From positions 1 to 51,206 of IMG/VR virus record IMGVR_UViG_3300036823_000047: 51,206 bases of DNA; one strand, 5' to 3'. Position 1 is the stretch's first letter. Every line of letters starts with the position of its first letter. A program made the translations under genes and the position numbers. This stretch comes from a virus (taxonomy: Duplodnaviria > Caudoviricetes). This document shows positions 1 through 45,860 of this stretch, piece by piece. The notes beneath the pieces are model-generated. The model saw only the letters and a list, made by a program, of their open reading frames with translations, was not told the DNA's origin and searched no databases.

Positions 1-127
1 GGTATCTCGATCCTCCGTTCCGCGTACAAGCACTACCAGTACAAGGACACGCTGTACAAGATCGATGCTATTCAGAAGGAGCGTCACGGCATCGGCGTTC
101 CGGTCATCAAGCTTCCGCCGGGCTGGA
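1..127. repeat. 127-bp exact terminal duplication (left copy); circular/permuted genome, probable assembler overlap
   Basis: 1-127 is identical to 51080-51206; the portal reading frame runs continuously across the junction. Confidence 0.95.
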
Positions 128-810
128 AGCGTGAGGACAAGATCCTCGCCGAGCAGATCGGTCGCAACCTTCGTACCAACGAACGTTCACATATCATCCT
201 CCCACCAATGTGGGACATCATGTTCGCCAAGCTCGAAGGTCAGCCGGTGGATTGTCTCGGCTCGATCGAGCACCACAACATGATGATCATGACCAACGTG
301 CTTGCACCGTTCCTTACTAGCTCTTCTGTCAAGAAGGAGAGCCTGGAGACCTTCTACAAGGGTACTCGGTACATCGCGGAGACCATTGCGGACACGATGA
401 ACCGTTATGTCATCCAGCCGCTGGTTGACATTAACTACTCTCGTGTCAAGTACCCTGAGCTCAAGGTCAAGCGGATCGGCGAGTGGGAAGACGCTCGCAC
501 GCAGAGCTTCACCCTCCGCAACTACGTCGGTGCAGGTCTCATTGTTCCGGACAAGACGCTCGAAGCATACCTTCGCGACGAGAATGACCTGCCCGAGATC
601 GATGAGGAGACGCGTGAGCCTCTCCAGATCGGCAGTGCGACTGACCCGAATGCTAACGTTCAGGCTGGTGCGCCTGGAGCTCCTGGCAGTGCTCCGAACG
701 CTGCGAATCCTCCCAAGCCTGCACGCACCGGTCCTCCTCGTCAGGGACCTGCAAGTCCTGGTTCGCCTCGACACAACGGCGGTAACGACAGGTCCGGAGG
801 TACGAAGTGA
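1..810 (+). CDS. Portal protein (Mu gp29/DUF935-like), C-terminal part; continues from 50354
   Basis: Frame 1 reads GISILRSAYKHYQYKD...ERHGIGVP into ORF 208-810; the joined gene is about 511 aa and follows the large terminase. Confidence 0.88.
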   Translation, partial: GISILRSAYKHYQYKDTLYKIDAIQKERHGIGVPVIKLPPGWKREDKILAEQIGRNLRTNERSHIILPPMWDIMFAKLEGQPVDCLGSIEHHNMMIMTNVLAPFLTSSSVKKESLETFYKGTRYIAETIADTMNRYVIQPLVDINYSRVKYPELKVKRIGEWEDARTQSFTLRNYVGAGLIVPDKTLEAYLRDENDLPEIDEETREPLQIGSATDPNANVQAGAPGAPGSAPNAANPPKPARTGPPRQGPASPGSPRHNGGNDRSGGTK

Positions 811-1250
811 CTACACCTACGATGATTACGGTCATCGGGGATCTCATTCCGGATGAGCGTGCGACCCAAGTCACGTTCTATGTTCCGCAGATCATTCGCT
901 ACAGTCATGGACCTGAGACGATCATCCCATCGGAACTGATCGCGCTTCCACTCCCTGATGGGACGTTCACTCTTCCTGTGTACAGCACGAACGATCCTGA
1001 TTGGAGTCCCAACAACTGGAACTACCTGGTTAGCATCGATGGACCTGACGTGCACAGGGAGTACTACGTTCAGGTTCCCTATGATGTAGTGGGTGCGGAG
1101 ATCAACTTCTCTGCTATCCTGCCCGTACAGCCGGCAAGCAAAGGGACCTTGTACGCACCGTTCGCTCATGGGGCGCACGTGCTAGTGCTGGCTACGGGTG
1201 CGGACGTTCCAGAAGGTACACCACCCAACACCTTGATTGCGAGGGTCTAA
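807..1250 (+). CDS. Hypothetical virion-associated protein
   Basis: GTGA overlap with portal stop; LPDGTFTLPV...PNNWNYLVS resembles N-terminal modules of actinophage minor structural proteins. Confidence 0.6.
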   Translation: MTTPTMITVIGDLIPDERATQVTFYVPQIIRYSHGPETIIPSELIALPLPDGTFTLPVYSTNDPDWSPNNWNYLVSIDGPDVHREYYVQVPYDVVGAEINFSAILPVQPASKGTLYAPFAHGAHVLVLATGADVPEGTPPNTLIARV

Positions 1251-37416: not shown

Positions 37417-37917
37417 CTACTGCTCCTTCGACAACTGGATGTGATCCACGACCTTTTCCTGTAGCTCCTGGAGTCCCTTGCCGAGGTTCTCGATCGCCTC
37501 GCCGTACTGGTTGACCATGTGCACGAGGTCCTTGACCCGCTGCTCCAGGATCGCCGACTGTCCCTTCGTGGCTCGCCGACGCTCCATGATAGCCTTGAAG
37601 CCATCCTCGGTCGGCTCACAGTGAAGGATCCACTTCGACAGACCCACACCACCACCGCGACGAAGCTGCTCGATGCAGTTCTGTCCGACGAGGGCGTTTC
37701 GGATCTTCGTGTAGTACGGATTGGCGATCTCGAGCTCGGCGAAGAGCCGAGTCAGGTGGCCCTCGTAGATGTTGACCTCTACGTTGAACTCCTGCACGCC
37801 GTCCTCGACGTCACCGTTGTTCAGCGTCTCCTTGTGCGACCTCTTCAGCATCTCCTCGTACACACGCTTGGCGTGGTCGAAGAGAGCTGGAGTCACCTCT
37901 TCTGTAGTGCTACTCAC
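37417..37917 (-). CDS. Hypothetical winged-helix/coiled-coil protein
   Basis: IEQLRRGGG..LSKW; C-terminal coiled coil. Confidence 0.6.
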   Translation of the reverse strand: MSSTTEEVTPALFDHAKRVYEEMLKRSHKETLNNGDVEDGVQEFNVEVNIYEGHLTRLFAELEIANPYYTKIRNALVGQNCIEQLRRGGGVGLSKWILHCEPTEDGFKAIMERRRATKGQSAILEQRVKDLVHMVNQYGEAIENLGKGLQELQEKVVDHIQLSKEQ

Positions 37918-41922: not shown

Positions 41923-42111
41923 CTACGGCTTGACCTGCTTCGTCATCGGCTTCCACTTGCCGTTGTCGTCACAGATGTCCGTGTGTCCCTTGCTACCGCG
42001 GGTGTCGCCCGGGTTGCAGTGCTTCCCCTTGCTGGTATCCTGACAGCCACTCGCGCCCGACAGGAATCCGATCGTGATCACGGCTGCTGCCGCTACGATG
42101 ATCCGCTTCAC
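41923..42111 (-). CDS. Small putative lipoprotein
   Basis: MKR-hydrophobic-ASGC lipobox-like; two further Cys. Confidence 0.65.
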   Translation of the reverse strand: MKRIIVAAAAVITIGFLSGASGCQDTSKGKHCNPGDTRGSKGHTDICDDNGKWKPMTKQVKP

Positions 42112-42308
42112 TTGGGGACCACGTTGTGCAGGTTCTCCTCGAGCGCCTCGACCGCGGACTCGATGGTCTCCTCACGGTCGTTCATCCCCTGGATCTCGTC
42201 GACGTACTTCTTGCCGACCTGGCACAGGAGGATGAACAGTGCTTCCGAGTGGGTCACCCCTTCGTTCTGGATGATCTCCTGGACGGCCTCTTCGATCTTG
42301 TCGGGCAT
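42108..42308 (-). CDS. Hypothetical protein
   Basis: AGGAG RBS; coupled. Confidence 0.65.
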   Translation of the reverse strand: MPDKIEEAVQEIIQNEGVTHSEALFILLCQVGKKYVDEIQGMNDREETIESAVEALEENLHNVVPK

Positions 42309-42580: not shown

Positions 42581-42610
42581 ATAATACAGCGGTTCGCGAG
42601 CACCCTTCAA
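42581..42610 (-). promoter_or_regulatory. Early promoter
   Basis: TTGAAG-N18-TATTAT. Confidence 0.6.
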
Positions 42611-42638
42611 GAGGTGCAACTTCAAAATCTTTTTGTCC

Positions 42639-43226
42639 TTACAGGACCTTACAGTTCGGCCGGAAGAGATGCCGATGAGCGGTAGGGATAACGCCCTGCT
42701 GCCAGAGGTTCCGAGTGGTCAGGACGAACTGGCCCTCCTCCAGCCGTTCGATCTTCAGACCCTTGTTCTCCAGCACGTGGGCATCGAGCAGAGGAGTCAG
42801 CAACTGCACCCTGAACTGCCATCCACCGAAGCCATCGCCCGCACCGGGCTTGATGGAATCAGGACCGACGGTGTAGTGCGTGTAGCGCTCGGTGATGAGC
42901 GCGTTACCATTCCTGTCCTGCTCAACCATGTCCAGCCAGTAGTCGTCATCGCTGTCCACGTACGGGCCCTCGATGGTGACGTAGAGCTCGTTACGTGCGT
43001 TCAAGGCCGTGTGGAAGTGGTAGAGGTACTTCTCGGGCGTGTAGCCTTCACCCTTCGGTGGATCGATGTTCTCGACCCTACGATACCACCAGACGGGACA
43101 GAACCACGACTCTCCGCGACCTTCCCCTGCCTGGAAGCCTCGACCCTTACGAGCCAGTCGAAGGTGGTTGGTCTCTTCGAACTCCTCGATCGCCTGTGAC
43201 AGACGCACCCAGTGCGGATTCGTCAT
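42639..43226 (-). CDS. Hypothetical protein
   Basis: ATGA coupling at 43226; GFGG..F...TRNLW.QG.IP motif. Confidence 0.7.
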   Translation of the reverse strand: MTNPHWVRLSQAIEEFEETNHLRLARKGRGFQAGEGRGESWFCPVWWYRRVENIDPPKGEGYTPEKYLYHFHTALNARNELYVTIEGPYVDSDDDYWLDMVEQDRNGNALITERYTHYTVGPDSIKPGAGDGFGGWQFRVQLLTPLLDAHVLENKGLKIERLEEGQFVLTTRNLWQQGVIPTAHRHLFRPNCKVL

Positions 43227-43504
43227 CGCTGCAGCTCCGCGAAGTGGGCCAGGTGGTTCGACGCCTCGGCGTACACCTTCATGTAGATCACGTCCTGCGT
43301 CATCCAGAACAGCTTGACGCGCGTACTGTTCTCCATCTCCTCGTCGGCCAGGTCCTCCGCGGTGCATCCGCTAGAGTGCCGAGCGAGGATGTTTACCTCG
43401 TCGCGGATCTCCTGGAGGTCCTTGTAGGTTGCCTCCGCACCCTTCATCCCCAGCAGTGCGTTGTTGAGCTTCGTTCCCAGCTCCTGGAGTCGAGTCTCGT
43501 CCAT
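43223..43504 (-). CDS. Hypothetical protein directly downstream of hammerhead
   Basis: GGAGGAG RBS. Confidence 0.7.
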   Translation of the reverse strand: MDETRLQELGTKLNNALLGMKGAEATYKDLQEIRDEVNILARHSSGCTAEDLADEEMENSTRVKLFWMTQDVIYMKVYAEASNHLAHFAELQR

Positions 43505-43513
43505 TACTCCTCC

Positions 43514-43563
43514 GGTCTCATCAGGCCCAGCGTAACTGGACGACCCCCGAAGGGGTTTCGACC
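43514..43563 (-). ncRNA. Type II hammerhead ribozyme
   Basis: GGUC-GAAA-CCCC-UUCG-GGGG-UC-GUCCAG-UUACG-CUGGGC-CUGAUGA-GACC: complete core, three stems, GUC cleavage triplet. Confidence 0.93.
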
Positions 43564-43764
43564 TTACCTCTTGATCAGGTTACCCTTCCGGTAAGGGTGA
43601 CCTCCTTGCTTGCGGAAGACGGCGCCATTGGACTCGAGCAAGTGATGCATGCCCGAGTAGCTGTACCCGTACTTGTCTGCCAGGAACCGAATGCTGTCCC
43701 CCTTGAAGTACTGGGCCACGATAATCTCCTGGCCCTTCTTCGTGACCCTCGACACCGCACTCAC
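43564..43764 (-). CDS. Small HTH DNA-binding protein
   Basis: Y..GDSIRFLADKYGYSYSGMHHLL...G..FR. Confidence 0.75.
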   Translation of the reverse strand: MSAVSRVTKKGQEIIVAQYFKGDSIRFLADKYGYSYSGMHHLLESNGAVFRKQGGHPYRKGNLIKR

Positions 43765-44024
43765 CTGCAGAACACCCCCGGGTGACTACTTCCGTCGCAG
43801 TCGAACGGGCAGATCAGAGCAGCGAACGACTGGTCCCACGCCTCCTGGCACGTACCGCTCAGGAGGATCTCCTGCTCGTTACTGTCCAGGCCTGCAATGT
43901 CCTGAACGTAGCCCTGGCCCAAGAGCCAGTTGCCGTACGTAGCCTTTGCGACCTCGTTGTCGGGCAGATCGACCTCGTGTGCTACCCTGTGCATGTGACA
44001 TTCGTGGCGACTCTTGACCTTCAC
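43761..44024 (-). CDS. Hypothetical Cys/His-rich protein
   Basis: GTGA coupling; YVQD....L...EQEILLSGTC..AWD. Confidence 0.65.
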   Translation of the reverse strand: MKVKSRHECHMHRVAHEVDLPDNEVAKATYGNWLLGQGYVQDIAGLDSNEQEILLSGTCQEAWDQSFAALICPFDCDGSSHPGVFCR

Positions 44025-44326
44025 TTGCGCTCCTTGAAGTTCTCGCACTCGACGTAGTCGCAACCGTACTTGTCGGCCGGGTGGTCGCACTCCTCGTCGG
44101 TCACGACCATCAGGTCTTCGAACGGGCAGGCGCACTCCTTGTTGTGCAGACCGAACTTGATCACGTGGATCGACCGCTGGAAGGGGTTCTTGGTCAGGTA
44201 CTTCGCGACCGGGTGCTTCTTACACGTGAGCGTGTACATGCCCTCCTTGGGCCGCTGAACGTCTGTCTCTAGACGAGGACCGTCGTACTGGGCGAACTTG
44301 AACACTCGAACTGGAACGAAAGCCAC
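44021..44326 (-). CDS. Hypothetical Cys-rich protein
   Basis: GGAGG RBS; C..H....YLTKNP..R. Confidence 0.65.
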   Translation of the reverse strand: MAFVPVRVFKFAQYDGPRLETDVQRPKEGMYTLTCKKHPVAKYLTKNPFQRSIHVIKFGLHNKECACPFEDLMVVTDEECDHPADKYGCDYVECENFKERK

Positions 44327-44345
44327 GGTGGCCTCCTTTCTACGT

Positions 44346-44380
44346 ACCCGGATGCGCTACTCTGAAGCTGCCATCCGGGT
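44346..44380. other. Intergenic hairpin
   Basis: acccggatg...catccgggt 9-bp stem. Confidence 0.6.
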
Positions 44381-44386
44381 CAGGTC

Positions 44387-44707
44387 TTACAGGAACGCCT
44401 TGAAGCACTCGTCGAGCGTCCAGCCTTCGGCCTTCAGCTGGGTCGGCGTCACGGTGTTCTGGATCGTCTCACACTGGCCGACGTAGTCCGCGCCGTCCGG
44501 AAGTTGAAGCACCTGCTGCCGCAATGCAACTCCTCCGTGGTGGCTACAGGCGCCCTTGCCCGAGCTCGACGAGTGCGAACCGTCCTTGCACGTTGCTCCC
44601 GACGTATGGTTCGTCGTCGTCGTAGGAACCTTGCGGATCTCCCCGTGGTTGCATCCGCCCAGCAGACCCAATGCAACGATACCCACCAGCAGCTTACGCA
44701 CGAACAC
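44387..44707 (-). CDS. Putative lipoprotein with DUF3761-like motif
   Basis: LLGGC lipobox; ATCKDG..S....GACSHHGGV. Confidence 0.7.
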   Translation of the reverse strand: MFVRKLLVGIVALGLLGGCNHGEIRKVPTTTTNHTSGATCKDGSHSSSSGKGACSHHGGVALRQQVLQLPDGADYVGQCETIQNTVTPTQLKAEGWTLDECFKAFL

Positions 44708-45133: not shown

Positions 45134-45295
45134 GAACAGTGGAAGGATCCTCGTAGTTGGTTCGAGAAGCTGCTCCACCTTCCAAAGCTGATCCCAGGTC
45201 TCCCTCTGATCCTGCAGGGAGTCGTCGTCCATCATCTCCTGCAACGCATCCCGGTGGATCTCCAACGCGGCCTTCATGATCTCTTCGTACGTCAT
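45128..45295 (-). CDS. 55-aa hypothetical protein (not in ORF track)
   Basis: ATGA coupling; MTYEEIMKAALEIHRDALQE... Confidence 0.55.
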   Translation of the reverse strand: MTYEEIMKAALEIHRDALQEMMDDDSLQDQRETWDQLWKVEQLLEPTTRILPLFG

Positions 45296-45630
45296 CGTCC
45301 GAACGCCTTCCTTCCTTGGTTGTCTGTCTCTCCGACGATCCTGGTCGTTACGTACGACCCCTGTGTGGTGTTCGCGTTCCGAGCACTCCTGAGAAGGCCG
45401 ATCTCCGGACCGACCTTACACCCCGTCTTCGGGTTCGTAGCCTGATCGAGCCAATGTCCCCCAGGCACACCTCGGAGGGACTTCTCGAACGTGTTCTGCA
45501 TCTTGTACGGTAGCGGCTTCGACTTCTTCTTGGACGGAACCTCCCCGTTGCCCTTAGACAACATCCGACCTTGGGAGGCAAGTCTCCGGAGCTGTAGCTC
45601 CTTGATCTTGTCCTTCGTCGACTGCTTCAC
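45292..45630 (-). CDS. Basic hypothetical protein
   Basis: AGGAG RBS after promoter. Confidence 0.65.
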   Translation of the reverse strand: MKQSTKDKIKELQLRRLASQGRMLSKGNGEVPSKKKSKPLPYKMQNTFEKSLRGVPGGHWLDQATNPKTGCKVGPEIGLLRSARNANTTQGSYVTTRIVGETDNQGRKAFGR

Positions 45631-45662: not shown

Positions 45663-45693
45663 ATTCTACTGCAGACCCCCTTGGAACCTTCAA
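45663..45693 (-). promoter_or_regulatory. Early promoter
   Basis: TTGAAG-N19-TAGAAT. Confidence 0.5.
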
Positions 45694-45699
45694 GGGGTT

Positions 45700-45860
45700 T
45701 CAGCTGTTTTGCGGAGGGCCGAGACGTTCTACCACGTACGGGTTACCCTGGTGGTACTCCGTAGCGATCTCGACCACCTTGCGAAACGTAGCATACTTGT
45801 CCTGCGGTCTGCCTTTGACAGTGCCGCACGCATCTTGTCCCTCATCTCGTCGTGGTCCAT
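45700..45860 (-). pseudogene. Possibly frameshifted small gene
   Basis: Coupled start MDHDEMRDKMRAALSK; a more natural continuation GRPQDKYATFRKVVEIATEYH lies in another frame. Confidence 0.35.

Follow-up and report, generated by a model that had tools for sequence, protein, structure and literature searches.

A compact type II hammerhead ribozyme was located between two small genes of the leftward early block of a phage genome, and, judging from sequence evidence, it is probably a genuine element that would cut the early message between these genes (our rough probability for this reading is 0.75). The window, that is the whole stretch of DNA that was analysed, comprises all 51,206 bases of a complete IMG/VR virus record; it has direct terminal repeats and a G+C content of 57%. 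Its long open reading frames (ORFs) point rightward as far as ~19 kb and leftward between ~48 kb and 19.5 kb, and the hammerhead is situated within the leftward block, among small, tightly packed genes. The relatives of the large primase-like protein are all distant (at most 30% identity) and come mostly from phages of Actinomycetota, including those of Curtobacterium, Streptomyces, Arthrobacter, Gordonia and Microbacterium. The phage DNA is present in soil metagenome runs; its source is an uncultured soil phage. The sequence analysis shows the motif and its fold, the family to which it belongs, the genes between which it stands and that relatives retain it.

The motif and its surroundings are given below in the order of the minus strand; the genes are ORFs, and the core segments, helices and start codon were read from the sequence.

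43761..44135, minus strand: gene upstream of the HTH cassette, weak match to PHROG 20898
43564..43764, minus strand: upstream gene, 66 aa, helix-turn-helix (HTH) protein
43566-43564, minus strand: stop codon TAA of the HTH gene, abutting the 5′ strand of stem II
43514..43563, minus strand: type II hammerhead ribozyme motif (sequence reading, descriptor, covariance model)
43563-43560, minus strand: stem II, 5′ strand GGUC
43559-43556, minus strand: GAAA core segment
43555-43544, minus strand: stem III, CCCC, loop UUCG, GGGG
43543 and 43542, minus strand: U16.1 and C17
43541-43535 with 43531-43525, minus strand: stem I, 6 pairs and a closing U-G
43534-43532, minus strand: triloop of stem I
43524-43518, minus strand: CUGAUGA core segment
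43517-43514, minus strand: stem II, 3′ strand GACC
43513-43507, minus strand: Shine-Dalgarno (SD) sequence GGAGGAG of the 93-aa gene, immediately next to the 3′ strand of stem II
43504, minus strand: ATG of the 93-aa gene
43223..43504, minus strand: downstream gene, 93 aa

The conserved hammerhead core is complete; it comprises CUGAUGA, GAAA and the cleavage triplet GUC (43544-43542). Three helices are present, including the G10.1-C11.1 and A15.1-U16.1 pairs. Stem II has four pairs, with a G-C at the core, and stem III is built of four G-C pairs and an A-U. On the minus strand the elements follow one another as stem II strand, GAAA, stem III hairpin, cleavage site, stem I hairpin, CUGAUGA and stem II strand, so that stems I and III are capped by loops and stem II is open to the flanking transcript, as in type II topology. 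The predicted cut lies 3′ of C17, between 43542 and 43541, and with the ATG at 43504 it would leave a leader of 37 nt. A first-pass annotation had already proposed a type II hammerhead at 43563-43514 of the minus strand, with a complete core and stems I to III, and this was confirmed by reading, by the descriptor and by the family comparison; the cut site and leader length that it predicted agree with the positions read here. It had further placed the motif in the gap between the stop codon of an HTH gene and the next ribosome-binding site, and the fit is in fact tight, as TAA and SD both touch stem II. The upstream product is indeed an HTH protein (Pfam HTH_58, PF19575; 36.5 bits, E 4.5e-9, cut-off 23.8). 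Its gene starts with a GTG that overlaps the stop codon of the preceding gene (GTGA), and the true start of that preceding gene (43761..44135) is probably further in. For the 93-aa downstream protein no Pfam and no PHROG family was found, and the protein Atlas pointed to no function, just to weak fold similarities of a model of low confidence.

For the comparison with related elements, viral contigs were searched with a pattern in which the core and a CCCC...GGGG stem III were fixed, and stems I and II were left free. The pattern matched at least 133 stretches; a rough calculation puts the number expected by chance below one. The family set among the matches listed contains 145 matches and 116 distinct sequences; among these, a stem I of at least 4 pairs is present in 110 of the 116, and a stem II of at least 3 in 114. 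The 116 distinct sequences listed split into two classes of 58 each, one with a long and one with a short loop I, and the window hammerhead falls in the short-loop class.

Covariation was examined in an alignment of 55 short-loop members from which the window sequence was excluded. Standard pairs occupy 96.3% of the cells of this alignment, and the covariation score of 0.614 compares with 0.151 for shuffled alignments (reached in 0 of 500) and with 0.04-0.09 when the pairing partners are slid. Changes on both sides were seen at all 7 pairs of stem I and at 3 of the 4 pairs of stem II, that is at 10 of 16 pairs overall in the 55 members; the pairs of stem III and the stem II pair nearest the core, which the pattern fixed, are uninformative for covariation. 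A covariance model built from the 55 members (R1) covers the window site from 43505 to 43568 over all 64 model positions (E ~1e-15) and scores it at 64.7 bits, of which the share owed to core and stem III is partly there by construction, as the seeds were found via a pattern taken from this very site. Features outside the pattern also fit, namely stem I, the outer pairs of stem II, the U-G and triloop cap, the G-C below the cap and the A before stem II.

The short-loop members form a compact subclass, in which stem I has 6-7 pairs and ends in a U-G and triloop, stem II has 3-4 pairs and an A precedes stem II. Under the triloop the G-C is conserved in 49 of 55 and the U-G in 30 of 55 members, and the A before stem II is almost invariant. 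The window site shows all traits of the subclass, including the stop-to-start position, and departs from it in the first base after stem II, which is G in the window and A in most members.

Gene context was analysed for those distinct listed members that have at least 200 nt of flank on each side. An ORF of at least 40 codons ending between -15 and +4 nt of stem II, with another ORF starting no more than 60 nt beyond stem II, was counted as the family layout. By this measure 97 of 109 distinct members have ORFs on both sides of the hammerhead, as against 13 of 109 in the antisense control. The window hammerhead shares this layout, with a stop codon on one side and the next start on the other. 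It stands unusually close to the start codon: just 7 of 103 members fall in the 0-9 nt bin.

Five viral contigs (L014, L036, L039, L042 and L120) each have two identical hammerhead copies, ~430-580 nt apart. In several of them the identity extends through the leader to the next ribosome-binding site and the 5′ flanks differ, which looks as if ribozyme and leader had been copied together, as a single module, in front of successive genes. Rfam revealed extra type II hammerheads in two more contigs, at 117-176 (plus strand) of L009 with 30.1 bits and at 755-816 (minus strand) of L033 with 39.8 bits, each a few hundred bases from pattern matches; the pattern thus undercounts the copies per contig.

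Under our preferred reading, the hammerhead would be transcribed within the leftward (minus-strand) early polycistronic message and would fold as it emerges, stem III first and then stem I, with stem II closing once GACC has been made. By analogy with tested members of the family, the RNA would then cut itself after C17 (43542) during transcription, and it is on this analogy that we infer cleavage in vivo and an effect on expression. At the 3′ end of the upstream HTH message there would be the GC-rich stem III hairpin and a 2′,3′-cyclic phosphate. The message of the 93-aa gene would start at 43541 with a 5′-OH, the stem I hairpin at its tip and the 37-nt leader that holds the ribosome-binding site. 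Separate stabilities and separate translation rates of the two cistrons would be the likely consequence. Terminal hairpins and unusual ends are known to alter mRNA decay, in a direction that depends on whether the organism uses RNase E or RNase J. A role in separate expression has been suggested in print, and according to a 2019 review (PMC6765202) the role of bacterial and phage hammerheads is still unproven.

Phage hammerheads have been known since 2011, and the window element matches the setting that was described then. As reported by Perreault et al. in 2011 (PMC3088659), prophage type II hammerheads that flank genes cleave in vitro and in E. coli, and several hammerheads flank single genes or short blocks of varying identity. 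The elements described there, with the model RF02276 (Hammerhead_II, clan CL00010), have in common with the window hammerhead the core, the permuted topology and the setting beside small phage genes on the gene strand. Their consensus differs in having a longer loop I and a pseudoknot of at least 4 pairs with the tail after stem II, whereas the window site has a triloop and no pseudoknot. In Desulfovibrio vulgaris, as described in PMC8782182, three type II hammerheads cleave in vivo, with both products captured by cyPhyRNA-seq, and cleavage takes place also during in vitro transcription. These hammerheads are located by hypothetical, phage-like and HTH genes, and the window element likewise stands beside an HTH gene. 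Yet they belong to prophage-like regions of a bacterial chromosome from another phylum, and they are likened here by description.

A much denser arrangement was observed in three IMG/VR records of ~50.5 kb (G001-G003; L137-L139), which contain 11, 9 and 8 R1 matches at E ≤0.01, in contrast to the one copy of the window. The hammerheads of G001-G003 are all on the minus strand at 41-49 kb, within ~8 kb, and occupy nearly every gap between small genes. What these records share with the window is the match to the R1 model, the location on the same strand as the small early genes and the position near one genome end. Kinship of the window phage with G001-G003 was considered and rejected, as primase and terminase each matched 0 of 5 records.

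Searches for relatives of the locus itself gave no match in the phage collection, either by blastn of 42600-44400 or by tblastn of both flanking small proteins. In the viral contigs the HTH protein had one distant partial match (L003, 23 residues) and the 93-aa protein no related locus. With no useful relatives from these searches, positional conservation of the ribozyme was judged from soil-run contigs alone, namely the contigs of four soil metagenome runs (X2-X5) in which parts of the window occur. Their differences from the window are as follows.

43568..43765: 198-nt stretch, essentially the HTH gene, missing in contigs of X2, X3 and X4
43397-43567, X4: 0 differences
43353-43567, X3: 1 difference
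43336-43555, X5: 1 difference
43244-43567, X2: 2 differences, places not listed
Upstream flank, X2: 11 differences and 2 gaps over 97 nt
Upstream flank, X4: 18 differences and 2 gaps over 241 nt
Upstream flank, X3: 31 differences and 11 gaps over 635 nt
Downstream flank, X3: 23 differences over 394 nt
Downstream flank, X4: 27 differences and 2 gaps over 447 nt

The hammerhead and the 93-aa gene form an island (43244-43567) that is 99-100% identical to the relatives (0-2 differences over 171-324 nt), and the flanks at 42600-43236 and 43766-44400 differ from them by 5-11%. For X3, X4 and X5 the sole listed difference within the island is at 43394, outside the motif. The contigs of the relatives break between ~43236 and 43353. 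Such a near-identical island suggests a recent exchange of the module or a strong constraint on it. As the motif is identical in close relatives, they speak for conservation only and contribute no covariation of their own.

In X2, X3 and X4, which come from two studies and are represented by one contig each, position 43567 is joined to 43766 with one letter between, so that the edge of the indel is 4 nt from stem II. In the window the indel is flanked, on the minus strand, by AGGTGA (43766-43761) and AGGTAA (43569-43564). As deduced from the joined sequence, the upstream gene 43761..44135 would end in these relatives at the TAA that closes the HTH gene, with one codon changed; it runs there directly into the hammerhead. 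The HTH gene is therefore a presence/absence polymorphism among close relatives, for which gain and loss are alike possible, and the ribozyme was kept while its upstream neighbour varied. The ribozyme and the gene after it, which occur in close relatives both with the HTH gene ahead of them and without it, make a natural comparison for the effect of cleavage on neighbouring cistrons.

An indel right beside the ribozyme also feeds the idea that hammerheads mark cassette joints in phage mosaics. According to this alternative, which is compatible with the preferred reading and which we consider unlikely, the hammerhead is a joint between exchangeable gene cassettes. Its conserved ~50 nt would provide a short homology for the insertion, loss or swap of single genes between phages, and RNA cleavage would be secondary, or would make a newly acquired gene expressible alone. 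A combined version, in which hammerheads are the joints of a cassette system and transcript cutting makes the expression of each cassette independent of its neighbours, has in our estimate the same rather small chance of being right. The missing HTH gene, with its joint 4 nt from stem II, and the near-identical island inside diverged flanks both fit such a role, as does the statement in Perreault et al. (PMC3088659) that the hammerhead-flanked genes vary. Moreover, 29 of 76 ends of blastn blocks (blocks of at least 150 nt) between G001-G003 fall inside a hammerhead ±10 nt, intervals that make up 9-12% of the region. However, joints in phage mosaics fall at gene boundaries anyway, and so do hammerheads. 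Because nearly every gap of G001-G003 has a hammerhead, the block-end test cannot separate a cassette joint from a gene boundary, and conserved hammerheads by themselves make BLAST blocks end there. In the window, the joint lies between AGGT[GA]A repeats outside the ribozyme and not within it, and a single indel, ambiguous as to gain or loss, was seen.

The cleavage reading was also weighed against tertiary structure and folding. In the account of Perreault et al. (PMC3088659), tertiary contacts are critical for fast cleavage at 0.5 mM Mg, and many hammerheads show none of the known contacts. [quoted passage not shown] Loop I has the sequence UUAC, complementary to GUAA both 5′ of stem II and at the start codon, 6 nt past the SD-side tail. 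Complements of at least 4 nt between loop I and the 3′ tail occur in 12 of 58 members of the short-loop class vs. 6.3 ± 2.3 after permutation, and complements to the 5′ flank in 3 of 58 vs. 6.7 expected. For the long-loop class, Watson-Crick complements of at least 4 nt between loop I and tail were found in 48 of 58 members vs. 21.2 ± 3.4 after permutation; they correspond to the pseudoknot of Perreault et al. (PMC3088659). A UUAC/GUAA pseudoknot with the 5′ flank or the AUG was rejected, as the class-wide statistics do not support it and it looks like a chance complementarity.

[quoted passage not shown] The window hammerhead is like them in its short stems and in having no evident contact, but it belongs to a natural, covarying subclass. 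This subclass may use an undescribed tertiary contact formed by the G-C / U-G cap and the A residues on either side of stem II; alternatively, the compact form may cleave slowly.

The minimum-energy fold of the 50-nt core is the exact hammerhead secondary structure (-20.5 kcal/mol), and the hammerhead helices are contained in the minimum-energy fold when the transcript ends at 43514 or at 43510. Once the SD is transcribed, a fold in which the SD pairs with the stem III 5′ strand gains 3.4 kcal/mol over any that preserves the hammerhead helices. The energy of this SD-pairing fold is unremarkable when compared with shuffled sequences (z -0.62). The calculated energies fit a co-transcriptional time window for the hammerhead.

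These results bear on a second alternative, in which the RNA folds and has its main role without cleavage, as a structure that stabilises the message or controls translation. Stem III would then be a 3′ protective hairpin, or the fold would hide the SD, and the core, slow or inactive, would amount to a 'minimal' hammerhead. The greater stability of the SD-sequestering fold in the longer transcript agrees with this, as do the failure to find a contact that joins stem I to stem II and the SD that abuts stem II, an arrangement with a start codon so near that few family members have it. Against it, the SD-pairing fold is no better than that of shuffled sequences, and all core nucleotides are kept here and in 116 of 116 distinct sequences listed, which the search pattern in part required. 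Three covarying helices around an intact core are hard to explain without catalysis, and the prophage and Desulfovibrio type II hammerheads described as tested do cleave. We therefore regard a non-cleaving structure as improbable, and return to the self-cutting hammerhead as the preferred reading.

The hammerhead motif is not a product of chance. A type II descriptor (core CUGAUGA, GAAA and U-H; at least 4 pairs in stem I, 3 in stem II and 3 in stem III) was run over both strands of the 51-kb window and had a single match, the site at 43514-43563; it had 0 matches in 400 random sequences from a first-order Markov model that kept the length and dinucleotide composition of the window. The check with Rfam hammerhead models that the first-pass annotation had suggested succeeded in one respect and fell short in another: RF02276 aligns to the core at 23 bits, below its cut-off of 37 bits (E 0.015 for a stretch of 301 nt, E 2.6 for the window as a whole), and nothing in the whole window reaches an Rfam gathering score. 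When Rfam was applied to 20 family loci, the 37 bits were reached by 7 of 10 long-loop and 0 of 10 short-loop members; in this sample of ten short-loop members four scored 26.8-28.6 bits and six were unlisted at E ≤1. As no sampled short-loop member passes, the shortfall at 23 bits reflects a limit of the model for the compact subclass, and, being a usual score for that subclass, it is no argument against the hammerhead call. A chance look-alike or functionless dead relic, to which the sub-threshold Rfam score, the single isolated copy in the genome and the rare chance matches that scanning very many windows will turn up might point, is thus disfavoured and in our view scarcely credible, given the clean random sequences, the fit of subclass features not asked by the pattern (U-G and triloop, G-C, A before stem II, position between stop and start) and a motif unchanged in relatives with diverged flanks.

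Taken alone, the window element is one more phage hammerhead and matters little. Of wider consequence is that a large, covarying, compact subclass systematically stays below the Rfam gathering score (0 of 10 sampled), and annotation pipelines will accordingly miss such elements, that of the window included.

The first-pass annotation had also supposed that the phage segments its early transcripts with several RNA processing devices, with tRNA-like folds nearby. ARAGORN detected 0 tRNA genes in the 51-kb window, and Rfam at E up to 5 gave no tRNA and no other ribozyme in it. R1 revealed no second hammerhead in the window; its next best candidate, at 42264-42302 (minus strand), has 13 bits and E 0.21, is devoid of stems I and III and was dismissed as insignificant. 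The idea of several processing devices is therefore unsupported. A further RF02276 candidate at 37622-37704 (minus strand; 10.6 bits, E 1.13) was likewise insignificant.

A reading of the hammerhead site as a terminator was also rejected, as no terminator-like site coincides with it and stem III has no trailing U-run. Elsewhere in the early block, the 130-nt gap upstream of the gene 45292-45630 (minus strand) contains at 45681-45710 (minus strand) a GAAA, a 7-pair CCCCUUG/CAAGGGG hairpin and a GUC. Such an order corresponds to the 5′ half of a hammerhead-like arrangement, with no stem I or CUGAUGA after it, and R1 scores it at 10.4 bits (E 1.2). The hairpin has a terminator-like score when read on the plus strand. 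It may be a relic half-hammerhead or a plain hairpin.

Two other small early genes, at 44387-44707 and 41923-42111 (both minus strand), begin with lipoprotein-like signal sequences, the former with a sub-threshold match to DUF3761 (21.8 bits vs. a cut-off of 29).
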